Shown here: positions 46,132-64,000 of the stretch, in pieces
Position numbering within the stretch: the first letter of the stretch is position 1
Layout of the letters: each line of letters begins with the position of its first letter
Source of the DNA: Candidatus Dormibacter sp.
Lineage (GTDB): Bacteria; Chloroflexota; Dormibacteria; Aeolococcales; Aeolococcaceae
Assembly: GCA_039935655.1 (NCBI GenBank)
Contig: JBDTJX010000077.1
Span: 55,718 to 119,717 of the forward strand
Reading direction: 5' to 3'
DNA: 64,000 nucleotides
The notes under the pieces: generated by a model
The model's database searches: none
The model's input: the letters and a program-made list of their open reading frames with translations, nothing else
What the model was told of the DNA's origin: nothing
Position numbers and translations under genes: made by a program

Positions 46132-46278
46132 GCGGGCCAGTCTACGGGGCGGGACCGCCGCCCTCGCCTGGTTGGGGGCTTCCCTACCGTGGTGCGGTGT
46201 GCTAGTGTTGGTTATCGAGGAATACCTACTTTGTGATAGTGGTAGTTCCATGTATCAAACCGGAGCAAAGGAGTGTCA

Positions 46279-46845: not shown

Positions 46846-46860
46846 ATCAAGCCTCCTTGC

Positions 46861-48730: not shown

Positions 48731-49553
48731 GGCGCCGCCGCCCCACGGCCGAAGCAGTGGCAGGCGTCGTCGCAGCCGCCCCGCCGCGGTGAGGTCGCTC
48801 GGCGGGGCTGAAGCTGGATGTGGCCGCTGAGCGACTCGACGACCAGGCCGGCGACACGCCTTCCGCGCGCTCACTCTCAGCGGCGAGAAGCTCCAGCGGA
48901 TCCGCCGGGGGCGAAGCTGCGGAGGCCGCGGTCGCCGGCGGTGAGGCCCCGCCGGCGACATCGAACAGCGGTGGAAGGCCCTGGTGGCTGTAGGGCCGCA
49001 CCGGTTCACGGTTCCCGGTCGGCTGGACATGGGCACCCGCCGAAGCCATTGACCTCGTACCCGCGGCGCCCGCTCGGACCCGCGCGATCATGCGCACATC
49101 GCGGACATCGAACACATCGGCTGCAGTCGCGCTCGCGGGGTTGGGCGCCGTCCCGTACCGGGTGACGACGGCCTCGGCGAGCGCCAGTGGCGCTCCGTCG
49201 GCGTCACGGCGAACGCCAACCGCCGGTGAATACCCGGCGGCGTCCGTGTCGCCAACGGCAACGAGGAAGACGCCGTCCAGTCCGAGCATCCATGCCGCAA
49301 GGCCTGTCTCGTGTTGAAGCAGAAAGACGGGAAGCGCGCCTGCGGGCACGTTGCCCCCCCACCAACGATCAAGCGCGGCCTGGCTGGCGCTCGCGGCGAA
49401 GAAGTCGAGGCCGCGAACACCCGGAACCAGGAAGACCGAGGCGGCAGATGCGCCCGGGCGCGCCAGACCCTCGAGTAGATCCGCCAGTCCGCGGGCCTCC
49501 GCATCGTCGCGAAGCAGCGAGATGAACGCGAACGAGTGCCGCTCAGCGGACAC
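48723..49553 (-). CDS. Hypothetical protein with an N-terminal pseudo-receiver-like region and an Ala/Ser/Pro-rich tail; possible upstream half of a frameshifted CpaE-like gene
   Basis: GTG start VSAERHSFAFISLL (complement of 49551-49553). The real part begins there, and the N-terminal 238 codons of the annotated 514-aa ORF are junk that overlaps tadC and a small membrane gene. Contains SVFLVPGVRGLDFF...VFLLQHETG...FLVAVGDTDAAG, resembling the pseudo-receiver that precedes the ATPase domain in CpaE proteins. Confidence 0.45.
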   Translation of the reverse strand: MSAERHSFAFISLLRDDAEARGLADLLEGLARPGASAASVFLVPGVRGLDFFAASASQAALDRWWGGNVPAGALPVFLLQHETGLAAWMLGLDGVFLVAVGDTDAAGYSPAVGVRRDADGAPLALAEAVVTRYGTAPNPASATAADVFDVRDVRMIARVRAGAAGTRSMASAGAHVQPTGNREPVRPYSHQGLPPLFDVAGGASPPATAASAASPPADPLELLAAESERAEGVSPAWSSSRSAATSSFSPAERPHRGGAAATTPATASAVGRRRQG

Positions 49554-49905
49554 GTTGCTCTGCCTGTTGTGCGGTGGTGGCGTTGGCGCAGCACACGCCG
49601 TAGCCGCTGTTGTGGTGCGCGACGCCCAGGCCGAGGAGGATCGTGCCTGCGAGGAGCGCCAGCGGCCCGCGGCGTACGGAGCGCCGTGCTCCACCCCGGC
49701 GTCGGAGCAGGCCGGCGGCGACCCCGCCGGCGGTCGCGGCCACCGCCAGCCAGCACACCAGCGCCACCAGCGCGAACACGGTGGCCTGCGTGACAGCCCG
49801 CCCGGTGAGGAGGTCAAAGCTGCGCGTGGTGTCTGCCCAGCCGAGCGCGAATGCGCCAAACAGGACCGCCGCTCCGGCCAACAACGCGAGGACGCCCGAG
49901 CGCAC
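49543..49905 (-). CDS. Small polytopic membrane protein (120 aa, 3 TM)
   Basis: MRSGVLALLAGAAVLFGAFALGW..., a second and third TM, then a short tail. Lies 4 nt after the tadC-like stop. High GC3. Confidence 0.5.
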   Translation of the reverse strand: MRSGVLALLAGAAVLFGAFALGWADTTRSFDLLTGRAVTQATVFALVALVCWLAVAATAGGVAAGLLRRRGGARRSVRRGPLALLAGTILLGLGVAHHNSGYGVCCANATTAQQAEQRVR

Positions 49906-49909
49906 CGCG

Positions 49910-50809
49910 TCAGCCTCCGCCGAGTCCGGTGGTCAGGCTCGCGAACGTCGGCGCACCCAGCAGCAGGAGCAGCGGGATCAGCATGCCTGCGACGGGCAGT
50001 GTCACAAGGATGCGTGCTCGCGCCGCCCGCATCCGCGCATCCGCGAGTCGGTGGTGGTACACGGCCTGTGCGACGCGCGTGTAGGTCAGACGCTCGCCGA
50101 TTCCAACGTTGGTTGTGGCGAGAGCGTCGGCGACCAGGGTGAAGGCGGGCACCCGGAACCGCTCTCCAATCGACCGGTAGAGCTCGGCGGTGCTGCGCGG
50201 CTGCGTGCTGATCAGGCGCCTCCAGCCACCCTCGACGAGGGTGCGCAGGTCTGGGGTGGTTGCGCACCGCGAGAGGATGCGCACCGCGTCATCGACCTGG
50301 AGGCCGCGTCCATCGGTCAGGATGGCGACAAGCATCATCATGTCGCCAAGAGTGCGATCGGCACGGTCGCGGCGCCGCTGCGCTGAAGCTCGCACCAGCG
50401 CAAACCTGATTAGCACAGCGGCGATTGCGAGTAGCACAGCGACCCCCGGTGGCGCTGCGAAGTCGCCGCTGCTCAACCGAAACGTCGTGTCAGCAACCAG
50501 GGTCACCGTGAAGGTGACCAGCGCCAGCACCGCTGTGCGCCCGACGAAGGCGGCGTCGCTCTCCGTGCGGTCGGCTTCGGCGAGCAGGCGGCGGAGGTCG
50601 AGCTCCTCGCGCGCGCGGCGCACGGCGGCACTGCGTTCGGCGGCCCGCTCGAGACGCGTGTGCGGGCGAGCGTAGCCACGAAGCGCGGCGAGCCGCTGCC
50701 ACGCACGGACGTCGGAGGAGGTGAGGTATCCGAGGCGACCGAGCAGAGCCGCCCACAGGCCCACCACGACGATGGCGGCGCTCGCGAACAGCCACAGACT
50801 ACTGGGCAC
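49910..50809 (-). CDS. Type II secretion system F family protein (TadC-like)
   Basis: N-terminal TM, cytoplasmic helical domain, C-terminal TM pair. GTG start overlaps the TadB-like 3' end by 11 nt. Confidence 0.68.
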   Translation of the reverse strand: MPSSLWLFASAAIVVVGLWAALLGRLGYLTSSDVRAWQRLAALRGYARPHTRLERAAERSAAVRRAREELDLRRLLAEADRTESDAAFVGRTAVLALVTFTVTLVADTTFRLSSGDFAAPPGVAVLLAIAAVLIRFALVRASAQRRRDRADRTLGDMMMLVAILTDGRGLQVDDAVRILSRCATTPDLRTLVEGGWRRLISTQPRSTAELYRSIGERFRVPAFTLVADALATTNVGIGERLTYTRVAQAVYHHRLADARMRAARARILVTLPVAGMLIPLLLLLGAPTFASLTTGLGGG

Positions 50810-51719
50810 CGAGGCGCTCCTGTTCCTCGGCGAGCCTGCCCAGGTCCCAGCGCGTCCAGTCGCGCACCTGCACGATCAGCCCGAGCAGGCTGACGAGCAA
50901 CGCGAACAGGATGACCACGCTCACCAGCACCACGTTGCCCGCGACGGACTGGTAAAACGCGCGGAACGTGTCCACGCGGATGACGATGACGAACATCACC
51001 ACCATCAGGACCGACATCGCAATCGTCACCGCGCGCTGCTGGGTGAGCGTGACTGCCGCCTCCTCCTGCACCGCGAGTTGCGCGCTGCCGACGGGAAGCA
51101 GCAGCTCGTCGATCGCCTCGATGAGTGCTTCGAGGCTGCGGCTGCGCGTCCACAGCAGCACCGCGCACGCGTACTCCACGACGGGGGAGCGCGCCCTCAA
51201 CCCCACCGCGACGATGTTGTCGAGGACCGAACCGCCGCGCGCCAGCGGCGCCAGGACGTACTCCAGTCCAGGTCCGGGGTCGCGCCCGATCTCCTGCAGC
51301 GCGGTGTCGAGCGATTGATTGGCCACGGCCATGCGATCGCGCACGTCGCGCAGCCTCCCCAGAAACGCGCGCTCCATGCGCAGGCGACGGTTTGCCGCGG
51401 TCCCCGCCAATGCGAAGCGGAACCCGAAGGCACCGAGCAACCCGCCGATCACCGCCAGGATCCAGATGCGTGACAGAAGCCCGAGCGCGATGCCGGCTGC
51501 GATCAGCGACAGGCGCACCCCGACCCAGCGGCGCCACGGCCAGCCGAGGTTGGCGGCGACGTCGCGCTCCCGCTCGAGCAGGCGCCAGCGCGGTCGCTGG
51601 CGGCCGAGGCGGCGCACGTCGAGGTCCAGGATCGCCGCCGTGCCGCCCGCGGCGCACGCGATCACCACGAGGAGGCCCGCCAGTTGCAGCGTCGTCCAGC
51701 CGACCGCAGAGAGGATCAC
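50799..51719 (-). CDS. Type II secretion system F family protein (TadB-like)
   Basis: Same architecture as the TadC-like gene. Start ATG overlaps the cpaF stop (ATGA). Confidence 0.68.
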   Translation of the reverse strand: MILSAVGWTTLQLAGLLVVIACAAGGTAAILDLDVRRLGRQRPRWRLLERERDVAANLGWPWRRWVGVRLSLIAAGIALGLLSRIWILAVIGGLLGAFGFRFALAGTAANRRLRMERAFLGRLRDVRDRMAVANQSLDTALQEIGRDPGPGLEYVLAPLARGGSVLDNIVAVGLRARSPVVEYACAVLLWTRSRSLEALIEAIDELLLPVGSAQLAVQEEAAVTLTQQRAVTIAMSVLMVVMFVIVIRVDTFRAFYQSVAGNVVLVSVVILFALLVSLLGLIVQVRDWTRWDLGRLAEEQERLGAQ

Positions 51720-53128
51720 GGCGACGGGATCTCGTCAGCCGGCAGGTGGCCTCGCAGGCGTGGCCCGAGTCGGTTGAGATTTCCGACCTGCTCGGTCATC
51801 CGCCGCCAGCCGCCGCTGTCCGTCTGTCGGTACACCCACTTGTGATTGCCGCCTCGTTCCACCGCCAGGACCCCCGTTAGCCGACGCCGGCCGTCCTGGT
51901 TGGCGAGGTGAATCACTAGCTGGATAGCGTGTTCCACGACCCGCTTGGCCATCTTCTCGTTGCCGGTGAAACGCCGGTTCTCCATCACGTATTGCACAGC
52001 CTGGTCGAGGGCCAGCTCGGCGTCTTCAGCATGGATGGTCGTCATCGATCCGTCGTGACCGGTCATCAGCGCCTTGCACACGGCGGCCATCTCTTCACCG
52101 CGCGACTCCCCCAGGATCAATCGGTCGGGTTGAAAGCGCAGCGCGTGCCGCACCAGGTCGAACATGGTGAGCTGTCCGGAGTCGGCCTCCGCCCTGATCG
52201 ACGGGATCGTCGACACCGCCGAGGTCAGCGCGTGCCACGGCTGTCCGTCGCCACGGTCCTGGTCGAGGTGCAGCTCAGCCCCGTCCTCCACGACGACGAG
52301 GTGCTCGCCAGCGGGCACCATGCCGCACAGCACGCGCATCAACGTCGTCTTCCCGGTGCTGGTGCCACCGGCGATCATCACGTTGACGCGTGAATCCACG
52401 CAGGCCTCGATGAATCGGGCAATGCCCTCGGGCATCACCGCGCTGTGAACGTAGTCTGCGAGGTCGCGGACCTTCGAGCGGGCCGGGATACGGATGGCCG
52501 CCACCAGCGCTGCCTGCCCCGAGACGGCCGGGCGTTTGGCGACGCAGACGCGGATCACGCTGCCAACGTTGGCCTCCGCGATCGGGGCTGCATCAGTGAT
52601 GCTGTGGTCCCCGGTGACGCCACGCAGTCGCACCACGCGGCGAAAGAACTCGAGGCAGTCCTCGTCACCGGTGAACGGGCTGCCGCCGATCAGCGTGAGC
52701 TTGCGGCCCACGACGCTCACCAGCCAGCGGTCATAACCCAGACAGGTGATGTTTTCGAGATCGGCCCCGTAGACGAGCAGCGACAACGGAAAGAGGTGTG
52801 AGGCCAGGATCGCAGCGTTCCGGCGGGCGACGGCGCGATAGCCGGGGTTGCTGCCCAGCTCGCTGACCACCGCCAGCGGCAGCCCGCTCGTCGACGGCGA
52901 CGCGATGGCGCGCTCCACAACCCGAGCCACGTCGTCGTGCAGGCGCTCCTCGTGGTGCACCGACGCCGGCTCAACGCCGCGGTCGCCGATGACCCTGTCG
53001 GCGATTGCCTGCGCCACCTCACGCTCTTCGGCCGCGATCTGCGGCCACCTGGCGACGCGAACCTCCGTCGACCGCGTCGGAGTGAGTGGATCCAAGCCCA
53101 CACCGCCGACGTCGACCCGCACTGCCAT
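51716..53128 (-). CDS. CpaF/TadA family secretion ATPase (VirB11-like)
   Basis: Walker A VMIAGGTSTGKTT, Asp box, Walker B RLILGESRGEE, His box GHDGSMTTIHA. ATG (complement of 53126-53128) shares one base with the upstream stop (TGATG). The N-terminal 35 codons of the annotated ORF are rejected. Confidence 0.88.
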   Translation of the reverse strand: MAVRVDVGGVGLDPLTPTRSTEVRVARWPQIAAEEREVAQAIADRVIGDRGVEPASVHHEERLHDDVARVVERAIASPSTSGLPLAVVSELGSNPGYRAVARRNAAILASHLFPLSLLVYGADLENITCLGYDRWLVSVVGRKLTLIGGSPFTGDEDCLEFFRRVVRLRGVTGDHSITDAAPIAEANVGSVIRVCVAKRPAVSGQAALVAAIRIPARSKVRDLADYVHSAVMPEGIARFIEACVDSRVNVMIAGGTSTGKTTLMRVLCGMVPAGEHLVVVEDGAELHLDQDRGDGQPWHALTSAVSTIPSIRAEADSGQLTMFDLVRHALRFQPDRLILGESRGEEMAAVCKALMTGHDGSMTTIHAEDAELALDQAVQYVMENRRFTGNEKMAKRVVEHAIQLVIHLANQDGRRRLTGVLAVERGGNHKWVYRQTDSGGWRRMTEQVGNLNRLGPRLRGHLPADEIPSP

Positions 53129-53850
53129 CACGCAAGCACAGGCACGAGACTGAGGTCGTCGTTGACGCCGACGAGCGTGGTCGGCGTGCCAGTCTCGCCC
53201 ATCCTGGTGGCGCGAGCCTCGTCCCAATGCCACACCTCGCGAATTGCCAGCCCCGGAACGTTGCGCTCGAGCGTCTCGACAACGAGGCGGCGGTAGGCAC
53301 GGCTGCGCTGGTTGCAGATGATCAGCTCGCCATGCGGTGGTCGCGCCGCCTGGAGCACGCTGATGCTCCTCGACAGCAACGCAGGGTCATCCCGGATGAC
53401 CACGAAGGCGCGCGAGAAGACCGAGCAGATCGCCTCGGCCGCCGACCGTGGTGAGCGCAGGCCGGGATGAGAGAGCGGATGCCCGAGGTCAGCGACCACC
53501 ACGTCGTCGCGCATGCCTGCCAGGGCTGAGGCCAGCTTGGCCAGGCATTCGACGATCTCGTACCCGTAGCTGCGCGACAGCCCGGGCACGATGCGGAGCT
53601 GCTCGCGCTTAGGGTGGCCGATGGCTTGCGCATCGAGCTGCAACGCCGTCGCTGGTCGATCGCCGAAACAGTTGGCGATAGAACGGTCGTCTGTGCGCAG
53701 CAGCAGGAGGTCGGCGAGAGTTCCGCCTTCCATGTCGCAATCAACGAGCAGCACGCGATGCTGCTCCGCGAGCGTCCACGCGAGGCACGCCGCCCAATGT
53801 GTGGACGTCTGACCCGCGCGCGTCGTGTAAACGGCGATCAGGGTGCTCAT
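53128..53850 (-). CDS. Ssd/TadZ-like degenerate ParA-family protein (septum-site-determining-like)
   Basis: MinD/ParA fold with the Walker A position degenerate (AVYTTRAGQTSTHW instead of KGGxGKT) and a DCDMEGG Walker-B-like segment. ATG at 53850 overlaps the cpaB-like stop (ATGA). Confidence 0.6.
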   Translation of the reverse strand: MSTLIAVYTTRAGQTSTHWAACLAWTLAEQHRVLLVDCDMEGGTLADLLLLRTDDRSIANCFGDRPATALQLDAQAIGHPKREQLRIVPGLSRSYGYEIVECLAKLASALAGMRDDVVVADLGHPLSHPGLRSPRSAAEAICSVFSRAFVVIRDDPALLSRSISVLQAARPPHGELIICNQRSRAYRRLVVETLERNVPGLAIREVWHWDEARATRMGETGTPTTLVGVNDDLSLVPVLA

Positions 53851-54482
53851 GGCGGGGGCGATCCACCCACGCCGCCGGCACAGGCCGACCCACAGAGCCT
53901 GCTGATCGCATCGTTCGGCGCCAGTGGCTGGAGGGACGACGGATCCTGCTGCGCCGAGCGCACGGCATGAAGCGCGATGCTCGATGACCCCACCGATATC
54001 CACGCCTCCTCCTGGTCGGCGGGCACCAGCACGGTCAGCGCTCCACCCGACACGGTGAGCACGGTGACCCCCTGGCCGATGCGAGCCTGCCTGCCTCCCC
54101 CGATCGTCGCGAACACATCGACGCGGTCCCCCGCCGACAGGGGCGGCGGAGCCTGCAGTGTCAGCGCGATCTCCACCTGCGCACCGGCATCGATGAGGTC
54201 GTCGTCGCGGAGGATGTCGTTGGGGTGCAGGCTCAGCGTATAACGCGCGGCATATTGGGCGGGGGAGCGGTGCTCGTACTGGAAGTCACCCTCCTGGGCG
54301 CGGACGGTGACAGTGGAGATGTCGTCGGCGACGTAGGGGCTGCCGGCCAGCACGGCGTGCTTGAGGATGTACACGCTGATCGTCTGCTGGTTACCGGATT
54401 GCTGGAGGTAGACCATCACGCCGAGGACAAGGACGATCACGCTGCTGAAGAACGCGGCCGCGGTCAGGCGACGCCGATCCAT
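53847..54482 (-). CDS. CpaB/RcpC-like SAF-domain pilus/secretion assembly protein
   Basis: N-terminal TM (AAAFFSSVIVLVLGVMVYL), then a SAF-like beta-rich domain. GAGGGA Shine-Dalgarno before ATG 54482; an in-frame TTG lies 3 nt upstream. Confidence 0.6.
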   Translation of the reverse strand: MDRRRLTAAAFFSSVIVLVLGVMVYLQQSGNQQTISVYILKHAVLAGSPYVADDISTVTVRAQEGDFQYEHRSPAQYAARYTLSLHPNDILRDDDLIDAGAQVEIALTLQAPPPLSAGDRVDVFATIGGGRQARIGQGVTVLTVSGGALTVLVPADQEEAWISVGSSSIALHAVRSAQQDPSSLQPLAPNDAISRLCGSACAGGVGGSPPP

Positions 54483-54572
54483 CAATCATTTCCCTCACCC
54501 GTCAACCCCCGGCCAGACCGCACACTTGCCGGGCGGACAAGGTAGGTCCGCAGACGGGCATCGTCAAGGGTG

Positions 54573-55277
54573 TCATCCGGCGCCGAGATAGCCGGCCGGC
54601 GTCGGCTGCAGCCGGCCCGTCAGATGCAACTCGCCATCCGACCCGTACGGCGGATGCCAGAACAGCGCCACCACCTCGACACGGCGGACCGAGGCCGGGC
54701 GCCGCACGGTGGCCGTCAGCATCCGTCGCGCTGCGCGTCGCTGCAAAAGGGGCCGCCGCAGCCTCACTCCGACACCTCCGAGGCTGGCGGCGATCCGCGC
54801 CACCTCGGTTCCGACCGACGTGCCTGCTGCGAAGACGCCGAGCGACAGGGCGAACCCCATGTCGGGCAGCGCTCGCAGGCTGAGCGCGATGCCGGTCAGG
54901 GTGTCTGCCGGGGGACTGGCCAGGGCGAGATAAGTTCCTCGCAGAGGATCGCTTCGCTGCCAGCCGAAGGTGCGGCTCTCCAGTGCCAGGTGACGGTTGG
55001 TCGGCACAAGGTTGACAGCGGCGACCTCGACGGCCATGTCGACCATCTCGGGCACCATCCAGCCCGCTTCGACGGCACCCCCGCATTGGTCGGCGATGAG
55101 TGAGGCCGCGGCCGCCTCGACGCCGATATGCGGGGACTGCACGCCGAGCATCACCCGGTCGCCGAGGCCGAACAGGAAGAGGCCAAGCCCGCGGCCCGCG
55201 GTGAGCTGCCAGAGGTCGGCGAGCAATCGCTCGGAGTCAGCCGGGGTCGGCACCGGGCACGCTTCGACGAGCTGCAT
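54573..55277 (-). CDS. Hypothetical cytoplasmic protein (234 aa)
   Basis: Very high GC3 and no TM helix. Sits between the GT-C-like gene and the cpaB-like gene on the same strand. Confidence 0.5.
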   Translation of the reverse strand: MQLVEACPVPTPADSERLLADLWQLTAGRGLGLFLFGLGDRVMLGVQSPHIGVEAAAASLIADQCGGAVEAGWMVPEMVDMAVEVAAVNLVPTNRHLALESRTFGWQRSDPLRGTYLALASPPADTLTGIALSLRALPDMGFALSLGVFAAGTSVGTEVARIAASLGGVGVRLRRPLLQRRAARRMLTATVRRPASVRRVEVVALFWHPPYGSDGELHLTGRLQPTPAGYLGAG

Positions 55278-55340: not shown

Positions 55341-58250
55341 CTACGGGATCAGGTGGATAGCCCCGATGTCCTCCGCCACGGTCATGGTCAGCTCCAGGGG
55401 CTCCGACCCATACGCCGGCCACTGGCTGCAGGCGCCGATCGGGAACCGGTAGGCCGTGGGCCCTGTGGGCATTGTCTTGAAGGAGATGGTGCGGTGCTCG
55501 CCGGGTGGCGAGGGACGGTCGTCGATGATCACCAGGCTGCTGGTGAAGCGCGCGGCGGCGTCGAGCTCGATCCATGAGTAGTCGTCCCAGCGATGGCCGG
55601 AGGGCAGCGTCAGCCGCAGCGATGCCGGCCCAGTGCGGGTTATCCCCACTGAGATCGGCGACGCCCCCGTCGGAGGTGGCGGCGGCTTCACCGATAGGAA
55701 GTTCGGCGCGTCGCCCCAGTCGCAGCCGAAACCGACGAAGGGCAGGTCGGTGGTGATCAGAGGGGTCGACAGCGGCAGGTGCAGAGACCTCGGGTCCGGC
55801 ACGTTGGCGGTGTCGAGCACGTAGATCGTCTGGCCGTGCACGTCGGCGAACGGGCGGTAATGGCTGAGGATGTACTGGCTGATGTCGTAGTGCCGCACCA
55901 TGGTGGGGATGTAGTCCCACCCGGGGATGCCCAGCTGGGTCTGGTTGTAGAGCACAAACAGCGGGTGATCGGCCTGCAACTGTGCGATCAGGTCCCGCTG
56001 GATGACCTGGCGCATGGCGATCGACACCTGGTAGTACGCCGTGCCGGGGCGGAAGTCCATGAGGTAGTAGAGGAATGCCGGCTCGTCGGTGAAGTCGAAC
56101 ACGTGGCCACCCGCGGGCAGGTAGGCGTGCAGGAAGGTGCTGACGTCGTTGAGCAGATTGATGTCCAGCGCAGTCGGCGTCGCGTACCCCAGCGCTGCGA
56201 TGCGCGGCTCGCTGCTCACCGTGGTGCGATAGCCCGCCGGCGCCGCCTTCACCGCCGGACTGATCGCAAACGGGAACAACCACACCAACACTGCGAAGAG
56301 TGCTGCAACCCCGAGCCCGCTACTCAGCCCCCGCACGCGCGCGAACAGCCGTACCAGGAGGGGACCGCCGACATCGGCGATCTCGCCGATAAGGATGATC
56401 AGCAGCGGCACGCACGTCGCGAAAGTCTCGTTGACATGAAGGTCGGCGCGGTCGAGGAATTTCGGGTAGTAGAGGAACTCCAGGATCGCCGCCGCGATCA
56501 GCATCCAGTCGAGAGTGGTCAGCCGGACCCGCAGCCAGAGCTTGGTCACCACCAGGAAGAAGCCGGCAAGCATCGCGACGACGGGCACGACGACCTCCAT
56601 CAGGTACTGCCCGGTCAGCGGCTGGTGCGGCAGTCCGCCGGTGAGGATGTGATCGGGGGCGAAGGCCGTGTAGTACTTGACGAAGTCGTCCAGGGCATGC
56701 TGGCTGAGCAGGATGACCAGAAGCACGGCTGCGACGGTGACTCCGCCCACCGCTGTCCACAGGGTTGTCGTGAACGCCGGGAGCCGGAGGTTGGCGCGCC
56801 GGCCGCCGGTGGCGTAGAGGTCGCGCGCGAGCACGGCGAATCCAACCGCGGCGATGCAGTACGCGGTCTCCGGGGTGATCACCGCCTCGATGGCCAGCGC
56901 CGCCCCCAGCGCGATGGCGAGCCACCGCCCGCGGCTCTCGAGAACGAACCACAACAGCACGAGAACCAGTGGCCAGGTGACGAAGCGCCAGAAGATGACT
57001 GCGTTGCCGAGGTCAGCGTGCAGCAGCAGGACCCCGAGAACGGGAACCAGCAGCAGCCACCCCTTGCCGACGACCCGGTATGCGAGGAAGTAGAAGCTGA
57101 GCAGACAGAGCGGCACCACCCAGAGCGTGTACCCGGATGCCGCTCCCCAATAGCTGTCCTGGATCGACGTGCTGGTCAGCAGCGGCTGGAACGCATCCTC
57201 GAGGATGCCGTGCGTGCTGATCCAGCCGCTCCATGGAAAGAGGCCTGACTGGACCAGCCGCAGCGTGGTCTGGCTCTGGCCGACCTCGAAAGCGTCGAAG
57301 TCGCCGAGTTGGCCGAACACAAACGCGAGTGCGACGAAGAGGAAGACCGGTACAGCCACCAGGAAGACGAGGCGCTGTTCGACACGCACGACTGCGGCCG
57401 CCTCACGGCCGGCACGCCGCAACGCCACCGCCGCAACGAGGACTGCCGCGACCAGAAGCACGACCCCGAGCGAGGTCGGCAGCCAGGCGTAGTGGTGCAC
57501 GGTGTGGTCGCTCAGCACCGTGACCTGGGTCGCCTGCGACGCGGCGATCAGCGCCGATAGGGTCAGGCATGCGCCGAACCCGTTGAAGCGACCCTGGTGC
57601 CTGCGCAGGGCATCCCAGCCATCCTGTTTTCGGTTGCTGCTCGCCAGCGCCGCCGACATGAGCACGACGACGAGCGTGTAGACGGCGGCGACGACGAGGA
57701 CAGTGCGCCACACGTTGGACGCAGGGGTGTTGCGCGCGATGGTCGCACCGAAGCCGAGGACGCCACCGACCAGCGCGATTCTCGCCCATGATGCGAGCAC
57801 AGCCATTGCGTCAACCGGCGTCGTTCCCGTCTCACCTCGGGCCGTCGCGGGGGTATCCACCGAGCTCCTCCGAGAGCGGTCAGCGAACGCGGGGAGGGGC
57901 ACATGTAGCCGCGCAAACACCCACAGCCCGAGAAGGCAGATGACCACGGTCGTCGCCGGGAAGACCACCACCGCCAGCTCGTACTGGGTGATGTACACAT
58001 AGGGGTTGAACGCCTGGAAGATGGGATAGCCGATGACGTCGGTGGCCACGTGGAGCGTCCTGTCGATGTGATGATCGAGGGTCCTGGCGCCGAACGCGGC
58101 GATGGCCACGGCAACCCCGATGAGCACGGCGAGCGGCAGCCCGCGCCCAAGCGCCGTCGCCCAGACGCGCAACCGCGGCGCTGGCAATCGCGGCCCCGGT
58201 TGAGCCTGACGTGAGTTCACACGAGTACCCGCGTGGATCGATTTCGGCAT
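55341..58250 (-). CDS. Large polytopic membrane protein, putative GT-C-type (polyprenyl-phosphate-sugar-dependent) glycosyltransferase
   Basis: 969 aa with about 20 TM helices across the first 650 aa, then a 300-aa C-terminal extracytoplasmic domain. This architecture is reminiscent of actinobacterial arabinosyl/mannosyl GT-C enzymes. Divergent from the GT2/heptose operon. Confidence 0.6.
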   Translation of the reverse strand: MPKSIHAGTRVNSRQAQPGPRLPAPRLRVWATALGRGLPLAVLIGVAVAIAAFGARTLDHHIDRTLHVATDVIGYPIFQAFNPYVYITQYELAVVVFPATTVVICLLGLWVFARLHVPLPAFADRSRRSSVDTPATARGETGTTPVDAMAVLASWARIALVGGVLGFGATIARNTPASNVWRTVLVVAAVYTLVVVLMSAALASSNRKQDGWDALRRHQGRFNGFGACLTLSALIAASQATQVTVLSDHTVHHYAWLPTSLGVVLLVAAVLVAAVALRRAGREAAAVVRVEQRLVFLVAVPVFLFVALAFVFGQLGDFDAFEVGQSQTTLRLVQSGLFPWSGWISTHGILEDAFQPLLTSTSIQDSYWGAASGYTLWVVPLCLLSFYFLAYRVVGKGWLLLVPVLGVLLLHADLGNAVIFWRFVTWPLVLVLLWFVLESRGRWLAIALGAALAIEAVITPETAYCIAAVGFAVLARDLYATGGRRANLRLPAFTTTLWTAVGGVTVAAVLLVILLSQHALDDFVKYYTAFAPDHILTGGLPHQPLTGQYLMEVVVPVVAMLAGFFLVVTKLWLRVRLTTLDWMLIAAAILEFLYYPKFLDRADLHVNETFATCVPLLIILIGEIADVGGPLLVRLFARVRGLSSGLGVAALFAVLVWLFPFAISPAVKAAPAGYRTTVSSEPRIAALGYATPTALDINLLNDVSTFLHAYLPAGGHVFDFTDEPAFLYYLMDFRPGTAYYQVSIAMRQVIQRDLIAQLQADHPLFVLYNQTQLGIPGWDYIPTMVRHYDISQYILSHYRPFADVHGQTIYVLDTANVPDPRSLHLPLSTPLITTDLPFVGFGCDWGDAPNFLSVKPPPPPTGASPISVGITRTGPASLRLTLPSGHRWDDYSWIELDAAARFTSSLVIIDDRPSPPGEHRTISFKTMPTGPTAYRFPIGACSQWPAYGSEPLELTMTVAEDIGAIHLIP

Positions 58251-58497
58251 GAAAGGGGGCGCGCCGCCCCAAGCAGGGCCACGGCGGTCCGCGCGCCGCC
58301 CTTTCGAGCGACATCCGTCCGTTGGCCGCTACAGTATTACCATTCCTCCGGCCACGGGTGGACCCCCGCAACGCCCCCCATCGCCCGGATCACCTGAGGG
58401 AGACTCGTCTTTGCCCGGATCGCCTCCAATCACCTCGGCTCTCGACGACATCGATGTGATCCACGTGTCGGGCGCTGACACCGGAGAGCGGACCGAG

Positions 58498-59718
58498 ATG
58501 CCGTCGATCAGCCTCCTCGTGCCGGTCGACGACATTGCCGACCCGGTGCTCTCGATCGTCATTCCCGCGATGAACGAAGAGATCACTGTCAGTGACTTCG
58601 TTGCGTGGTGCCGCGCCGGCCTCGAGGATGCCGGTGTCACCGGTGAGGTCCTCATCGTCGACAGCTCCACCGACCGCACGCCCGAGCTCGCGGTCGTCGC
58701 GGGCGCGCGCGTGCTCCGAGTCCCCGGACGCGGACTGGGCCGCGCCTACATCGACGCGCTTCCCTACATCCGCGGCCGCTGGGTGATCATGGGAGACGCC
58801 GACTGCACCTACGACTTCCGCCGGCTCTCACCCTTCACCGCACGCTTCGACGAGGGCTTCGAGTTCGTCATGGGATCGCGTTGGAAAGGCGCCATCGAGA
58901 AGGGCTCGATGCCTGCCCTGCACCAGTATCTTGGCACCCCGATCACAACGCTGATCCTCAACACGTTGTTCGGCAGCCGCTTCTCCGATATCCACTGCGG
59001 CATGCGTGGCATCACCCGCGACGCACTGGAGCGCATGCACCTGCAATCCCAGTCCTGGGAGTACGCGTCCGAGATGGTCCTCAAGTCGGTGCACATGCAC
59101 CTGCGGACAACCGAGGTTCCGGTGTCGTTCCTCAAGGATCGGCAGGGCCGTGTCAGCCATCACAAGCGGCTCGGCTGGTTCTCGCCGTTCCAGGCAGCCT
59201 GGATCAACCTGCGCGCCATGTTCATCTACGGGGCCGACTTCTTCCTGCTCAAACCAGGTTTGCTGCTCACGGCGCTGGGCCTGCTCATCGTCGTGCCCCT
59301 CACGTTGGGCCCGATCAGCCTCGGCCCGTTGGTGCTGTCGCTGTACTGGATGCTGTTCGGCCTGACCATGACGGTCCTCGGTCTGCAGAGCTTCTACATG
59401 GGATGCATCGTGCAGGTGCTGCACGATTACACGGGAAAGGCGACGCGTCGCTGGCTGTCCGTGTTCCGCTACACACGGACGATGCTCATCGCCGGGGCAA
59501 TGTTCATCGTCGGAATCGCGCTGGCGGTGGGACTCATCATCGACTACGTCGGCTCCGGGTTGCGCCTCCCCCTGAGCCACACCCATCAGATCTACTTCGC
59601 GATCACCGGCCTTCTCCTGGTGATCACCAGCTTCATGACCTTCGCCGCCACTCTCCTCATCCACGCCGCCGCGCTGCGTGGTCCCCGCGCCGGCGTCGCC
59701 GAAGACGAGCTGGCATGA
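58498..59718 (+). CDS. GT2 family polyprenyl-phosphate sugar synthase (DPM1/GtrB-like) with a C-terminal 4-TM anchor
   Basis: LSIVIPAMNEE, a DADCTYD DxD motif, and a GtrB-like C-terminal membrane domain. ATG 58498 follows GGAGAG. The upstream 83 codons of the ORF are Pro/Arg-rich junk. Confidence 0.78.
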   Translation: MPSISLLVPVDDIADPVLSIVIPAMNEEITVSDFVAWCRAGLEDAGVTGEVLIVDSSTDRTPELAVVAGARVLRVPGRGLGRAYIDALPYIRGRWVIMGDADCTYDFRRLSPFTARFDEGFEFVMGSRWKGAIEKGSMPALHQYLGTPITTLILNTLFGSRFSDIHCGMRGITRDALERMHLQSQSWEYASEMVLKSVHMHLRTTEVPVSFLKDRQGRVSHHKRLGWFSPFQAAWINLRAMFIYGADFFLLKPGLLLTALGLLIVVPLTLGPISLGPLVLSLYWMLFGLTMTVLGLQSFYMGCIVQVLHDYTGKATRRWLSVFRYTRTMLIAGAMFIVGIALAVGLIIDYVGSGLRLPLSHTHQIYFAITGLLLVITSFMTFAATLLIHAAALRGPRAGVAEDELA

Positions 59719-60326
59719 GCAGCTTCGCCGACCAGTTCATCGGCGAGTCCATCGCCATCCTGCAGTCGATCGACCGGGCCGAGGTTGAGAAGATGGCGAT
59801 TGGGCTGGGAGCCGCCCGCGCGCGCGGTGGCCGGCTGTTCATCCTCGGCGTCGGCGGTTCGGCCGGCCACGCCAGCCATGCGGTCAACGACTTCCGGAAG
59901 ATCTGCGAGTTCGAGGCCTACACGCCGACCGACAACGTCTCCGAGCTCACCGCCCGCATCAACGACGATGGCTGGGACAGCAGCTTCGTTGAGTGGCTCA
60001 AGGGCTCGCGGCTGAATGAACGCGATGCCGTTCTCGTCTTCTCCGTCGGCGGCGGGAACCGCCAGCGCAACGTGTCCGTCAACCTCGTCACCGCTCTCGA
60101 GCTGGCGCGCGAGCGACGCGCGGCGATCTACGGGGTCGTCGGCCGCGACGGTGGCTTCACGCGCGAGGTGGCTGACGCGTGCGTGGTGATCCCCCCGGCC
60201 TATCCCGACCATGTCACCCCGCACACCGAGGGCCTCTGCGCCGTCGTCTGGCACCTGCTCGTCTCTCACCCGGCGCTCATGGTGGCTGCTACCAAGTGGG
60301 AGTCGGTGACCCACGCTCGCGCATGA
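59715..60326 (+). CDS. SIS-domain sedoheptulose-7-phosphate isomerase (GmhA-like)
   Basis: LFILGVGGSAGHASH and VFSVGGGN SIS motifs. Start overlaps the GT2 stop (ATGA). Confidence 0.78.
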   Translation: MSSFADQFIGESIAILQSIDRAEVEKMAIGLGAARARGGRLFILGVGGSAGHASHAVNDFRKICEFEAYTPTDNVSELTARINDDGWDSSFVEWLKGSRLNERDAVLVFSVGGGNRQRNVSVNLVTALELARERRAAIYGVVGRDGGFTREVADACVVIPPAYPDHVTPHTEGLCAVVWHLLVSHPALMVAATKWESVTHARA

Positions 60327-61309
60327 CGGAGGCGTCTCTGCGGCGGGTGCTGATCGCCGGCGGTGCCGGCTTCATCGGCAGCTACTTCGTTGACCGCCTG
60401 CTCGGCGACCAGGAGACGAGCCGGGTCACGGTGTACGACAACTTCACGTCCGGGCGCGAGTGGCACCTCGCGCCACACGCGGCCGACGACCGGTTGACGG
60501 TGGTGCGCGCCGACATCGCCGACCGCGACGCCCTGGCCGCGGCGATGCGCGGTCACGACACGGTCATCCACCTCGCCTCCAACCCCGACATCGCCAAGGC
60601 GATGACCGAACCGACTGTGGACTTCTACGAGGGCACCGTTCTCACCCACGACGTCGTCGAGGCGATGCGCGTGGCCGGCGTCGGGATGATCCTCTATGCG
60701 TCGGGAAGCGGCGTGTACGGCGACATCGGGGACACCGAGGGTCATGAGGACATGGGGCCGCTCATCCCGGCGTCGACGTACGGTGCGAGCAAGCTCGCCG
60801 GCGAGGCACTGATCGCCTCGTACTGCTTCATGTTCGGGCTTCGCGGCCGCGTCTTCAGGTTTGGCAACGTGGTCGGTCCGCGCCAGACACACGGCGTGGG
60901 CTTCGACTTCGTGCGCCGCCTGCTTGCCGATCCACGGCGCCTGCGCATCCTCGGGGACGGCACGCAAAGCAAGTCGTACGTCGACGTCGAGGACGTGGTC
61001 AGTGCGGTGCTGCTCGCCGCCGTCGACGAGTCGCATCCCTTCCGCGCCTACAACGTGGCCACCGGCGATTACATCACCGTGACCGAGATCGCCGACCTGG
61101 CCGTGGATGTCGTCGGGGGCGCCGGGGGTGACACCGAGTACGAGTACACCGGTGGCAGCCGCGGCTGGAAGGGCGATGTACCGATCGTGCGGCTGGACAC
61201 CTCACGTATCCGCGCGCTGGGATGGAGCAACGCGCGCACCTCCCGGCAGGCTCTGGACGAGTCGATGCGGGCGATGCTGCCGCTGGCGCGGTCGGGGGCA
61301 CTCGGGTGA
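60323..61309 (+). CDS. NAD-dependent sugar-nucleotide epimerase/dehydratase
   Basis: VLIAGGAGFIGS Rossmann motif and YGASK catalytic motif. Start overlaps the gmhA-like stop (ATGA). Confidence 0.85.
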   Translation: MTEASLRRVLIAGGAGFIGSYFVDRLLGDQETSRVTVYDNFTSGREWHLAPHAADDRLTVVRADIADRDALAAAMRGHDTVIHLASNPDIAKAMTEPTVDFYEGTVLTHDVVEAMRVAGVGMILYASGSGVYGDIGDTEGHEDMGPLIPASTYGASKLAGEALIASYCFMFGLRGRVFRFGNVVGPRQTHGVGFDFVRRLLADPRRLRILGDGTQSKSYVDVEDVVSAVLLAAVDESHPFRAYNVATGDYITVTEIADLAVDVVGGAGGDTEYEYTGGSRGWKGDVPIVRLDTSRIRALGWSNARTSRQALDESMRAMLPLARSGALG

Positions 61310-62589
61310 ACGCCGGGGTGGCGGCGGTCTTCCTCGACCGCGACGGCGTCCTCGTGGAGGGCACCGAGGTGGACGGCGTGCCGACGCCGGTGTCCCGTGG
61401 TGGGCTCGAGCTCAGGCCCGGCGTGGAGGTGGCGTGTCGTCAGTTGCGCGCCGCCGGCCTGCCGCTGGTCTGTGTGACCAACCAGCCCGACATCGCCCGT
61501 GGCACGGTGACCATGGAGTCGGTGCGAGCGGCCAACGCGGAATTGCAGGCGCGGCTCAGCCTCGATGCCGTCATGGTCTGTCCCCACGACGACGCCGATG
61601 AGTGCGACTGCCGCAAACCGCGTCCCGGTCTCCTGCTGTCGGCTGCGAACCTTCTCGGTATCGACCCCAAGCGCAGCGTCATGGTCGGTGACCGCTGGCG
61701 CGATGTCGAGGCAGGCCGCCGTGCCGGCTGCGCGACCATCTTCATCGACAACGGATACCATGAGCGACGCCCGGATCACCCCGACGTGACAGCCCGCGGG
61801 CTCGATGAGGTGGTCCCGCAAATTCTGAGGATGACCATGCAAAAAGCCGCCGTCGATCGCGACGCAGCCGATGCCGTCAACGCGGCCGACCTCACCGTCG
61901 AGATCTTTGCGGACGGCGCCGACCTCGCATCCATCGTCGGGCTGGCCACCAACCCGCTGATCAAAGGCTTCACCACCAACCCCACGCTGATGCGCGCAGC
62001 GGGGGTCACCGACTACGACCGCTTCGCCCGGGAGGTGGTCGCGGCGGTGCCGACGATGCCGGTGTCGTTCGAGGTGTTCGCCGATGACTTCGATGGCATG
62101 GAACGCCAGGCACGGCGCATTGCCGAGTGGGGCGACAACGTCTACGCGAAGATCCCGGTCACCGATACCAAGGGCACGCCCACCCGTGGCGTGATCAGCG
62201 CGCTGAGTGAGACGGGCGTACAGCTCAACGTCACGGCGCTGATGACCGTCGAGCAGGTGAGCTGGGTCACCGAGGCGCTCGCGGGCGGGCCGCCCAGCTT
62301 CATCTCGGTGTTTGCGGGCCGGGTCGCCGACACCGGCCGCGACCCCATCCCGATCATGGTCGACAGCCTCGCGGTCATGGCGGCGCATCCCAACCTCAAG
62401 CTGATCTGGGCAAGCCCACGCGAGACCCTCAACATCGTGCAGGCCGACCAGATCGGCTGCCACGTCATCACCGTCACCCACGACCTTCTCAAGAAGCTGT
62501 CGATCCTCGGGACGGATCTCGACGAGTACTCGCTGGACACAGTGCGCATGTTCCATCGCGACGCCACCACCGCAGGGCTGGCGCTGTGA
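61306..62589 (+). CDS. Bifunctional fusion: D,D-heptose-1,7-bisphosphate phosphatase (GmhB, HAD) plus Fsa/TalC-type transaldolase
   Basis: GTG start overlaps the upstream stop (GTGA). N-terminal AVFLDRDGVL (HAD motif I) and CPHDDADECDCRKPRPGLL (GmhB zinc/motif III). C-terminal half has GFTTNPTLM, the Schiff-base lysine context NVYAKIPVT, and IWASPR, matching Fsa/transaldolase. There is no in-frame stop between the two halves. Confidence 0.75.
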   Translation: MNAGVAAVFLDRDGVLVEGTEVDGVPTPVSRGGLELRPGVEVACRQLRAAGLPLVCVTNQPDIARGTVTMESVRAANAELQARLSLDAVMVCPHDDADECDCRKPRPGLLLSAANLLGIDPKRSVMVGDRWRDVEAGRRAGCATIFIDNGYHERRPDHPDVTARGLDEVVPQILRMTMQKAAVDRDAADAVNAADLTVEIFADGADLASIVGLATNPLIKGFTTNPTLMRAAGVTDYDRFAREVVAAVPTMPVSFEVFADDFDGMERQARRIAEWGDNVYAKIPVTDTKGTPTRGVISALSETGVQLNVTALMTVEQVSWVTEALAGGPPSFISVFAGRVADTGRDPIPIMVDSLAVMAAHPNLKLIWASPRETLNIVQADQIGCHVITVTHDLLKKLSILGTDLDEYSLDTVRMFHRDATTAGLAL

Positions 62590-63380
62590 CAACCGCCGAC
62601 AACTCCGCACGCGATGACTGGGACAGTCACTGGCGCCACTACGCCGAGACCGCGGAGGACAACCCGGCCGAGATCATGCGATCGCAACTGGTCAGACGGT
62701 TCCTCAACACGCGCTCGCGCAAGCGCGTGGTGGACATCGGCAGCGGACAGGGCGACCTCGCCGCGATGCTGATGCGCGACCATGCCGACGCTCAGGTGCT
62801 CGGACTGGAGCTCAGCGCCGAGGGAGTCGCGATCGCCAAAGCCAAGGTCCCGTCGGCCACGTTCGTGCAGCGCGATCTTTTGGTCGACTCGCCCGTTCCC
62901 ACCGAGTTCGCCGGTTTCGGTGAAGCCGCCGTCTGCTCCGAGGTGCTCGAGCACGTCGACGACCCGGCGCGGGTGTTGCGCAACGCGCGGCCGTTCCTGT
63001 CTCCCGGATGCCGGGTGGTCATCACCGTGCCAGGTGGGCCCATGTCGGCCTTCGATCGTCACATCGGCCACCGCCGTCATCACACCCCGAGCTCGCTGCA
63101 CGCCGTCATCGACGCCGCGGGCCTCGACACCGTGGCGGTGTTCCGCTCCGGGTTCCCGTTCTTCAACCTGTACCGCATGACGGTCATCCTGCGCGGCAGC
63201 AAGCTCATCGACGACGTCTCAGCGCAGGAGCGGGGCGCTGGCGCGTCGTCCGGTGTGGCGGCGCTGGTCATGCGCATATTCCGCACCCTGTTCCGCTTCA
63301 ACCTCACGCGCAGCCCATGGGGATGGCAGATCGTGGGGATCGCCCGCGTCCCGACGGCGGGCACTGCCGGGCGCGTCTGA
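62586..63380 (+). CDS. Class I SAM-dependent methyltransferase
   Basis: VVDIGSGQGDL motif I and an acidic motif II (LGLELS). GTG start overlaps the upstream stop (GTGA). Confidence 0.78.
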   Translation: MTTADNSARDDWDSHWRHYAETAEDNPAEIMRSQLVRRFLNTRSRKRVVDIGSGQGDLAAMLMRDHADAQVLGLELSAEGVAIAKAKVPSATFVQRDLLVDSPVPTEFAGFGEAAVCSEVLEHVDDPARVLRNARPFLSPGCRVVITVPGGPMSAFDRHIGHRRHHTPSSLHAVIDAAGLDTVAVFRSGFPFFNLYRMTVILRGSKLIDDVSAQERGAGASSGVAALVMRIFRTLFRFNLTRSPWGWQIVGIARVPTAGTAGRV

Positions 63381-63384
63381 CACC

Positions 63385-64000
63385 GTGCTGATCACGCGCA
63401 CGCCGTTGCGCATCTCGCTCGGAGGTGGCGGCACAGATCTGCCGTCGTACTACCGCGAGCACGGCGGGGTGGTCGTGTCGGCCGCGATCGACAAGTACAT
63501 CTTCATCGCGGTCAACCGCACATTCACCAACGACTACTTCATCAAGTATTCGGAGCTGGAGAGGACGGGGTCGGTCGCCGAGATCAAACATCCCCTGGTG
63601 CGCGAGGCGCTCCAGCTGCACGACGTCGGTCCGGGCCTCGAGCTGGTCAGCCTCGCCGACATCCCTGCGGGCACAGGGCTGGGTTCGTCGGGCGCGTTCA
63701 CCGTCGGCTTGCTCCGGGCCCTGTACGGGTTCAAGCGTGAGCACGTGTCCGCCAACGCGCTCGCCGAGCAGGCGTGCCACATCGAGATCGATCTGCTCGG
63801 CCGGTCGGTGGGCAAGCAGGACCAGTACATCGCTGCGTTCGGCGGCATCACCTGCTTCGAGTTCTGCACCGACGGGCGCGTGCACGTCGCACCCCTGTCG
63901 ATCTCTCAGGACACCCTTCACGACCTCGAGGAACACCTCCTGCTCTTTTTCACGGGGTATTCCCGCGACGCCGACGTGATGCTTGCCGACCAGAGGAAGA
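63385..64000 (+). CDS. GHMP-family D-glycero-alpha-D-manno-heptose-7-phosphate kinase (HddA-like), 3' end outside the window
   Basis: GTG start 5 nt after the methyltransferase stop. N-terminal VLITRTPLRISLGGGGTD and the GHMP ATP-binding motif PAGTGLGSSGA. Confidence 0.8.
   Translation, partial: MLITRTPLRISLGGGGTDLPSYYREHGGVVVSAAIDKYIFIAVNRTFTNDYFIKYSELERTGSVAEIKHPLVREALQLHDVGPGLELVSLADIPAGTGLGSSGAFTVGLLRALYGFKREHVSANALAEQACHIEIDLLGRSVGKQDQYIAAFGGITCFEFCTDGRVHVAPLSISQDTLHDLEEHLLLFFTGYSRDADVMLADQRK

Follow-up and report, generated by a model that had tools for sequence, protein, structure and literature searches.

The 64,000-nt stretch of DNA analysed here (the window; G+C ~68%) comes from Candidatus Dormibacter and ends, at 55341–64000, with a gene for a 969-aa membrane protein and, divergent from it, an operon that combines a GT2 glycosyltransferase with a cassette of putative sugar-nucleotide enzymes. 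The membrane protein matches, at 100% identity, a hypothetical protein from a metagenome-assembled genome of Candidatus Dormibacter sp. We examined these genes as a candidate system for glycosylation outside the cytoplasmic membrane. All seven genes described in the initial annotation are present, each coding in a single frame with a third-position GC of 0.83–0.91:

55341–58250, minus strand: 969-aa polytopic membrane protein of an unannotated family, candidate GT-C-fold glycosyltransferase
58251–58497: 247-nt gap that separates the membrane-protein gene from the divergent GT2 operon, or 160 nt with a GT2 start at the TTG at 58411
58498–59718, plus strand: GT2 glycosyltransferase whose C-terminal part has four hydrophobic helices; the TTG at 58411 is an alternative start
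59715–60326, plus strand: SIS-domain protein, distant GmhA-like sugar-phosphate isomerase
60323–61309, plus strand: extended SDR, candidate GalE-like nucleotide-sugar 4-epimerase
61306–62589, plus strand: fusion of a HAD-IIIA phosphatase (GmhB-like, residues ~5–160) and a transaldolase (residues ~194–427)
62586–63380, plus strand: class I S-adenosylmethionine (SAM)-dependent methyltransferase MT1, candidate sugar O-methyltransferase
63385–64000, plus strand, truncated by the window end: GHMP kinase, HddA-like (D-glycero-D-manno-heptose-7-phosphate kinase type); full protein 326 aa

Stop and start codons, proposed initially to overlap at every junction of the operon, do so at four of the five (ATGA at 59715 and 60323, GTGA at 61306 and 62586); between the methyltransferase and the kinase a 4-nt spacer separates the TGA at 63378–63380 from the GTG at 63385. 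Contig L001 matches the window with 0 mismatches across the shared 8660 nt and runs beyond base 64000, where it completes and extends the operon:

L001 10800–11780: the GHMP kinase including its remaining part, 326 aa in full
L001 11782–12498, beyond the window end: NTP_transferase protein, 238 aa
L001 12495–13124, beyond the window end: second SAM methyltransferase, 209 aa

The nucleotidyltransferase lies just past the window end, as the initial annotation had anticipated, and after the operon comes a convergent gene for an aldo-keto reductase. Neither sigma-70-like promoters nor intrinsic terminators turned up in scans of the divergent intergenic region, although the promoter types of Dormibacterota may differ, and a promoter and terminator scan at the operon end likewise found none.

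The 969-aa membrane protein has no match in Pfam or NCBIfam, and eight diverse relatives likewise have none in Pfam. A word-indexed search recovered only 17 relatives; an exhaustive hidden Markov model (HMM) search recovered 2,122 cluster representatives (50% identity clusters) at E ≤ 1e-3, 506 of them at E ≤ 1e-30, and the best 150 mostly cover most or all of the profile. The family is large, and all of the members tested lack annotation. Family profiles of 16 and 95 sequences found no GT-C enzyme in the PDB, and an hhalign comparison with E. coli ArnT was insignificant (1% probability). A structure model from the 16-sequence alignment reached a predicted local distance difference test score (pLDDT) of 73, and the 95-sequence alignment gave a model with a pLDDT of 91.4 and a predicted TM-score (pTM) of 0.91, which has a GT-C fold. 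The top 16 Foldseek matches in the PDB are all GT-C proteins, led by STT3/oligosaccharyltransferase (OST) catalytic subunits and including AftA, EmbB, DPY19, PglB and ArnT, with Pmt4 and AftB further down the list; AftA is highest by TM-score (0.50, target-normalised). GT-C enzymes that use monophosphate donors (Pmt2, AftA, ArnT, AftB) score level with the OSTs. Structural alignments longer than 250 residues involve only GT-C enzymes, of more than ten families, and GAB1, a GT-C-like subunit of the GPI transamidase. The fold assignment is consistent; its scores are as low as a remote family would lead one to expect. On the strength of this model the 969-aa protein very likely has a GT-C fold, as its architecture had initially suggested.

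Hydropathy and the structure model together give ~17 transmembrane (TM) helices, fewer than the ~20 first counted, followed by a C-terminal extracytoplasmic domain of ~300 aa (residues 675–969). This domain consists of an alpha/beta part and a beta-sandwich, the latter with weak Foldseek matches to carbohydrate-binding modules (CBMs; E ~0.3). The positive-inside rule, averaged over the 95 sequences, predicts the N-terminus inside and the C-terminal domain outside. Polar residues that are invariant or nearly so (H347, G348, D352, R422, E461, H534, R601, D603 and H605) lie on the predicted outer loops, which are low in K and R. Five of them, H347, G348, D352, D603 and H605, are invariant across sequences that are 25–30% identical, which argues for an active site. 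The invariant HG-x3-D352 motif occupies the outer loop between TM7 and TM8, 55 residues long with two amphipathic helices. This loop resembles the EL1/juxtamembrane-helix module of GT-C enzymes and could be the EL1 equivalent, in which case the first six helices would be an N-terminal addition to an 11-TM core.

The GT2 protein matches PF00535 (59.7 bits), and GT2_TM_C (PF26629) is precomputed for the gene. Its NCBIfam scores, given here and below as bits against the curated equivalog cut-off, all fall under that cut-off: AglJ 112/325, haloarchaeal dolichyl-phosphate hexose transferase 74/375, PpgS 40/370 (E 2e-10) and ArnC 16/529. ArnC is also the best PDB match (E 3e-10), and a BLASTP alignment to E. 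coli ArnC (E 1e-12, 21% identity) spans residues 18–314, brings the DAD motifs into register and reaches the membrane helices. All of these closest named relatives charge polyprenyl or dolichyl monophosphate with a sugar, and the GT2 is likely to be a polyprenyl-phosphate sugar synthase of the DPMS/GtrB/ArnC type. The initial annotation had considered that it might instead be the general polyprenol-phosphate mannose synthase (Ppm1) conserved beside unrelated genes. It is no such housekeeping gene: its orthologues, 60–93% identical, accompany the cassette in loci L003–L009 and in 13 more genomes.

For the GHMP kinase, HddA is the best NCBIfam family over the full length (NF049969, 158.5 bits against 600). 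Its best PDB matches are WcbL (4usk/4usm), 3k85 and HddA (4n3o), at E 1e-43 to 1e-38, and the heptose kinases stand 25 orders of magnitude ahead of fucokinase (E 1e-18), with galactokinase weaker still (E 1e-9). The SIS protein matches GmhA families only in NCBIfam (TIGR00441, 39 bits against 209), and all 12 of its 12 PDB matches are phosphoheptose isomerases (E 2.5e-9); neither search returned KpsF or GutQ. Both proteins fall with heptose enzymes, and not with the galactokinase or arabinose-5-phosphate isomerase families that had been raised as alternatives. Aligned to Burkholderia pseudomallei GmhA, the SIS protein retains the equivalent of H64 and has D in place of E68. The HAD part of the fusion exceeds the HAD-IIIA cut-offs (TIGR01662, 87.9 against 44.6; TIGR01656, 128 against 84) and falls below those of the GmhB models (106 against 178, 78 against 150, 58 against 250). 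Its transaldolase part, residues 194–425, is above the TIGR02134 equivalog cut-off (331.8 against 281.95 bits).

The nucleotidyltransferase is by sequence a small sugar-1-phosphate enzyme, with MurU as its nearest relative and HddC next, both in NCBIfam (97 against 250 and 62 against 300, under cut-off) and in the PDB (4y7t, E 4e-21; 6jq8/5xhw, E 6e-15). The SDR (PF01370, 153 bits) finds as best PDB matches the archaeal GalE-like 4-epimerases 3ehe, 8rdg/8rdh and 3icp (E 1e-63 to 1e-57), and 4,6-dehydratases ~30 orders of magnitude weaker (E 1e-29); 8RDH features in an article about a GDP-sugar 4-epimerase with promiscuous activity (PMC12171764). Of the two activities first proposed for it, epimerase or dehydratase, it looks like the former, specifically a GDP-sugar 4-epimerase-like enzyme. 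MT1 matches Methyltransf_23, 11, 12 and 25 in Pfam, no specific NCBIfam family was found for it, and orthologues 44–91% identical occur in L003–L005 and L007–L009.

These assignments denote likeness of function only, as the scores do not reach membership of the GmhA, HddA, GmhB or HddC equivalogs. Nonetheless, transaldolase, SIS protein, kinase, phosphatase and nucleotidyltransferase agree in indicating a nucleotide sugar that originates from sedoheptulose-7-phosphate, and the GHMP-type kinase marks the alpha-anomer/GDP branch. We consider a heptose-type sugar the likely product of the cassette.

A search for the HAD-IIIA–transaldolase fusion scored 8000 candidates at E ≤ 1e-20, of which the best 120 are fused without exception. 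They include proteins from Acidobacteriota (Bryobacteraceae) and from an alphaproteobacterial metagenome-assembled genome (MAG; Dongiaceae), and the source annotation reads merely "transaldolase", a label that probably hides a role in sugar-nucleotide pathways. The idea that the fusion is a clade-specific trait was rejected, since these 120 homologues span phyla. Two separate genes take its place in L005–L007, L009 and L010. At L003 13390–17166 the HAD–transaldolase and GHMP genes appear in pieces, each with 84–96% identity, and these look like assembly frameshift errors rather than pseudogenes.

Comparative genomics, proposed initially as a check on the pairing of the membrane protein with the operon, shows it to be conserved. 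In seven of eight inspected loci the gene for the membrane protein (relatives 29–52% identical) adjoins the cassette or sits inside it, in differing gene orders:

Window and L010: membrane-protein gene divergent from the cassette
L003: membrane-protein gene convergent
L004 and L005: membrane-protein gene co-directional
L007/L008: membrane-protein gene embedded in the operon
L009, Jatrophihabitans cynanchi (cultured actinomycete): membrane-protein gene last in a 10-gene operon
L011: membrane-protein gene unlinked to the cassette

Across these loci the cassette proteins are 50–70% identical, versus ~30% for the membrane protein. Species-representative genomes were then scanned with a hand-made degenerate DNA motif for G-x2-PWRD-x4-HG-x3-D, which returned 120 stretches, 78 of them true family members by tblastn. 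Hosts in the Actinomycetota comprise Solirubrobacterales, Acidimicrobiales, Frankiales, Nocardioides pocheonensis, Dactylosporangium roseum, Mycobacterium sp. and Streptosporangiaceae; outside that phylum they are Chloroflexota, Dormibacterota and Myxococcales. The window had first been taken for a high-GC Gram-positive-type genome. Its host, a soil bacterium, belongs to the uncultured phylum Dormibacterota and is not a classical high-GC Gram-positive, though the system is nonetheless common in Actinomycetota. At least one cassette gene is present in 45 of the 78 species-genome blocks (8 kb each), and SIS, HAD–transaldolase or GHMP genes at ≥ 45% identity are present in 37. Assuming one cassette per genome of a few Mb, we estimate chance co-location at a fraction of a percent per block. 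The divergent layout of the window recurs in D. roseum (L068).

Some loci carry more than one copy of the membrane protein. Two stand in tandem at L005 6453–13303 (1117 and 1100 aa), and on contig DATBPD010000061.1 (a Dormibacterota MAG; L040, L090) copies 64% and 55% identical to the window protein flank the operon on both sides. Several paralogues beside one cassette fit acceptor-specific transferases with a common donor. We had also read the 52% identity of the L003 membrane protein, against 93–96% for its sugar genes, as fast divergence; this was dropped because the two paralogues flanking the operon on DATBPD010000061.1 show that paralogue choice explains the figure at least as well.

The HAD–transaldolase fusion and the cassette range well beyond the membrane-protein family. 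Bryobacteraceae contig L012 carries a SIS–SDR–HAD/transaldolase–GHMP–NTP cassette with different partners, including other GT2s, an LPG_synthase_TM–GT2 fusion and an amine-oxidase-like gene. It also encodes two polytopic membrane proteins without a Pfam match (1376–2935 and 6619–8376; 519 and 585 aa), which may be other unannotated transferase families acting on the same sugar.

On balance, we favour the view that the locus encodes a three-component-type extracytoplasmic glycosylation system like Gtr or Arn, in which the final transferase is a GT-C of a new family and the donor sugar is of the heptose type. In the route we infer, the substrates, the nucleotide, the order of tailoring, the lipid carrier, the flippase and the acceptor are all predictions. 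The transaldolase would provide sedoheptulose-7-phosphate, a good fit to the next step since this product is the substrate of GmhA, and the GmhA-like SIS isomerase would convert it to heptose-7-phosphate. Phosphorylation at C1 by the HddA-like GHMP kinase would yield heptose-1,7-bisphosphate, from which the fused GmhB-like HAD phosphatase would remove the 7-phosphate to leave heptose-1-phosphate. The small nucleotidyltransferase would then form a nucleoside diphosphate (NDP)-heptose, most likely GDP-linked. Tailoring could follow, with the GalE-like SDR a candidate for C4 epimerisation and the two SAM methyltransferases candidates for O-methylation; these specific steps are doubtful. The ArnC/DPMS-like GT2 would transfer the sugar to polyprenyl phosphate at the cytoplasmic face, the lipid-linked sugar would be flipped across the membrane, and the 969-aa GT-C-fold protein would pass the sugar to an acceptor outside, a cell-envelope polysaccharide or a protein, which the C-terminal beta-sandwich may bind. 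It is the conserved neighbourhood with an ArnC/DPMS-like GT2 that suggests use of a lipid-phosphate-linked donor by the 969-aa protein. Characterised GT2s of the DPMS/GtrB/ArnC type and characterised GT-C enzymes invert; with both steps inverting, an alpha-linked NDP-sugar would lead, by way of a beta-linked lipid donor, to an alpha-linked product.

A more specific proposal, which we put forward tentatively, is that the 969-aa protein founds an unrecognised GT-C family of ~2,100 clusters, widespread among Actinomycetota, Chloroflexota and Dormibacterota and extending to some Myxococcota. The family would take its sugar from a methylated heptose carried on polyprenyl monophosphate, an undescribed class of lipid-linked donor, and paralogues would direct this one sugar to different envelope acceptors.

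The logic proposed here matches that of known three-component or two-step systems, namely Gtr, Arn, PpgS/Rv3779 and Citrobacter GT136. Gtr O-antigen glucosylation employs the flippase GtrA, the undecaprenyl-phosphate-glucose synthase GtrB and the serotype-specific GT-C GtrC. The Citrobacter pentofuranose system, in which a MATE (MOP-superfamily) flippase serves polyprenyl-monophosphate pentofuranose, founded GT136 (PMC11127046). Like these two, the present loci pair a candidate GT2-type polyprenyl-phosphate sugar synthase with a large putative GT-C-fold transferase that has a CBM-like domain outside the membrane, and they combine a conserved donor pathway with a GT-C that varies or occurs in several copies; some loci also hold a GtrA-like gene or a MOP-like domain as a candidate flippase. 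Unlike them, a 5- to 8-gene heptose-type donor cassette lies in the same operon, a flippase is not recognisable in the window, and the GT-C, with its ~17 TM helices, resembles neither GtrC nor GT136 nor any Pfam family in sequence. ArnC and ArnT, the undecaprenyl-phosphate-L-Ara4FN synthase and the lipid A Ara4N transferase of the arn operon, are likewise distant (see above), and the loci differ from Arn in their sugar chemistry and in having no ArnE/F-like genes, with lipid A not obviously possible as an acceptor.

PpgS (Rv3631) is the mycobacterial polyprenyl-phosphate-GalNAc synthase, and Rv3779 is a GT-C that decorates arabinogalactan. The resemblance to this pair and to the Aft/Emb enzymes lies in the Terrabacteria setting, the PpgS-related GT2, the acceptor-specific GT-C and the leading TM-score of AftA; Emb and AftD, like the 969-aa protein, carry C-terminal domains, which in their case bind carbohydrate. 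In contrast to PpgS/Rv3779, all family scores are below cut-off, the donor would derive from sedoheptulose-7-phosphate rather than from UDP-N-acetylgalactosamine or phosphoribosyl pyrophosphate, and the 969-aa family also occurs in Chloroflexota, Dormibacterota and Myxococcota. The GDP-D-glycero-alpha-D-manno-heptose pathway (GmhA, HddA, GmhB, HddC) supplies Aneurinibacillus S-layer glycans and Campylobacter and Burkholderia capsules, and is found in Mycobacterium as Rv0113–Rv0115. The cassette shares with it the four enzyme classes, the GHMP-type kinase of the alpha-anomer/GDP route and WcbL/HddA as best structural relatives, and Campylobacter heptose modification similarly uses an SDR epimerase and methyltransferases for tailoring. 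It differs in that all four enzymes are distant, a dedicated transaldolase is present, often fused to the phosphatase, and its product apparently goes to a lipid-phosphate carrier, not directly to cytoplasmic heptosyltransferases.

Hints of a flippase come from outside the window. At L009 10001–14512 (CP097463.1) Jatrophihabitans encodes a 1503-aa fusion in which a MurJ/MOP-flippase-like domain of ~430 aa precedes the GT-C-like part; the domain matches Pfam MurJ below cut-off (E 1.5e-4), and the source name is "polysaccharide biosynthesis protein C-terminal domain". A GtrA-like gene adjoins the membrane-protein gene in L005, and the Citrobacter MATE flippase offers a further hint.

Several observations weigh against a lipid-phosphate-heptose system. 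The scores for GmhA (39/209), HddA (158/600), GmhB (106/178), HddC (62/300) and AglJ (112/325) all fall far below the cut-off, and the transaldolase and the generic HAD-IIIA domain are the only parts to exceed curated NCBIfam cut-offs. The phosphate-binding loop of the SIS protein reads S-V-G-G in place of S-T-S-G and carries a 6-residue insertion. In the membrane-protein family, 83% of members have D71 on the short first outer loop, which follows TM1; 16 of the 95 well-aligned sequences carry S, T, N, G, A or P there instead, for which reason D71 was dropped as the main candidate for the GT-C catalytic residue. The window protein has S341–G342 (~57225–57230, minus strand) where the family has 95% Arg/Lys and 87% Asp (PW-R-D motif), a pair unique among the 95 sequences; H347, G348 and D352 just downstream are intact. 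Linkage is incomplete, with the membrane-protein gene of L011 apart from the cassette and 33 of the 78 blocks devoid of cassette genes. Neither the window nor L001 encodes a recognisable flippase, no polysaccharide-backbone genes lie near the window operon, and the minus strand directly downstream of the membrane-protein gene (47927–55277) holds a Tad-like pilus/secretion cluster.

One alternative is that the GT-C uses a polyprenyl-diphosphate-linked glycan, as an oligosaccharyltransferase, ligase or polymerase, and that the GT2 is an ordinary cytoplasmic transferase adding heptose to a lipid-diphosphate-linked repeat unit. STT3/OST subunits do head the Foldseek list and PglB scores well too, but GT-Cs with monophosphate donors score equally. 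What is fused to the Jatrophihabitans protein is a MurJ/Wzx-like MOP domain, of a class that usually flips diphosphate-linked glycans, yet MOP-superfamily flippases can serve monophosphate donors (PMC11127046). A phosphoglycosyltransferase (Bac_transf), a GT4 and a WecG gene lie within the L007 cluster, whereas no phosphoglycosyltransferase or backbone glycosyltransferase is found near the window or several other loci. With the closest characterised relatives of the GT2 (ArnC, AglJ, dolichyl-phosphate hexose transferase, PpgS) all making monophosphate-linked sugars and sharing its C-terminal TM helices, we regard a diphosphate-linked donor as unlikely. Improbable to a similar degree is a nucleotide sugar other than glycero-manno-heptose, in which a TAL/FSA-type aldolase would build another ketose phosphate, such as one of an octulose or deoxy-ketose, to be handled by the divergent SIS protein, kinase and phosphatase. 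TAL/FSA enzymes accept varied aldehyde acceptors, and this reading would accommodate the low scores of all four "heptose" enzymes, the altered SIS loop with its insertion and a nucleotidyltransferase closer to MurU than to HddC. Against it, the best matches of kinase, isomerase and phosphatase are consistently heptose enzymes with no competing sugar pathway, and the transaldolase exceeds the curated cut-off of an equivalog whose product, sedoheptulose-7-phosphate, is the GmhA substrate. Both alternatives are less well supported than transfer of a heptose-type sugar from polyprenyl phosphate.

The membrane protein might also be non-catalytic, an exporter, scaffold or receptor with GT-C-like helical architecture, leaving NDP-heptose to cytoplasmic transferases. 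We consider this very unlikely, given that the long structural alignments lead to GT-C or GT-C-like proteins without exception, that the five outer-loop residues named above are invariant despite low overall identity, and that the protein co-travels with a polyprenyl-phosphate-type GT2. The proposed heptose-type system with a GT-C transferase remains our preferred reading of the locus.

The surroundings of the operon bear on the acceptor. The downstream Tad-like cluster of the window contains:

47927–49036, minus strand: ParA/CpaE-like open reading frame (ORF)
49910–51719, minus strand: two polytopic TadB/C-like ORFs
51716–53233, minus strand: T2SSE/CpaF-like ATPase
53128–53850, minus strand: small ORF without a family match
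53847–54485, minus strand: small ORF without a family match, with an N-terminal TM helix, possibly CpaB-like
54573–55277, minus strand: small ORF without a family match

Because the neighbours of the membrane-protein gene are Tad-like pilus genes, a pilin or other surface protein is possible as the acceptor. In L003, too, the cassette has a T2SSE gene nearby. Elsewhere the setting differs: Bac_transf, GT4 and WecG genes mark the L007 cluster, and UDP-glucose dehydrogenase and GT2 genes are neighbours in L003, L004 and L009. A UDP-glucose/GDP-mannose dehydrogenase recurs beside the membrane protein (L003 6609–9552, L004 637–2619, L009 20632–21891), in many cases accompanied by a small GT2 and a second epimerase, and in L004 dehydrogenase and GT2 are fused; these genes may represent a second modification pathway, of the uronic-acid type. 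At lower coordinates in the window lie three ordinary genes with no visible relation to the glycosylation genes:

42622–44787, plus strand: PAS-GGDEF-EAL signalling protein
44719–46251, minus strand: two-HKD phospholipase-D-like protein
46483–46860, minus strand: small cupin

Literature on the cassette, on heptose together with GT-C, GtrB or polyprenyl, and on Dormibacterota glycosyltransferases yielded no description of this system, and we know of no precedent for a lipid-monophosphate-linked heptose donor. That donor, a final transferase outside the described families, a complete donor pathway encoded alongside with its own transaldolase, and the spread over several Terrabacteria phyla all appear to be new. 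If the proposal is true, it would extend what is known of bacterial surface decoration outside the membrane by a new enzyme family and by polyprenyl-phosphate heptose as a new kind of lipid-linked donor. It would assign a function to a large family now labelled "hypothetical" and explain thousands of HAD–transaldolase fusions annotated only as "transaldolase". For the Dormibacterota, a phylum known only from metagenomes, it would be a concrete and first prediction of cell-envelope chemistry. The same operon occurs in the cultured actinomycetes Jatrophihabitans cynanchi, Dactylosporangium roseum NRRL B-16295 and Nocardioides pocheonensis Gsoil 818, which makes the prediction directly testable.

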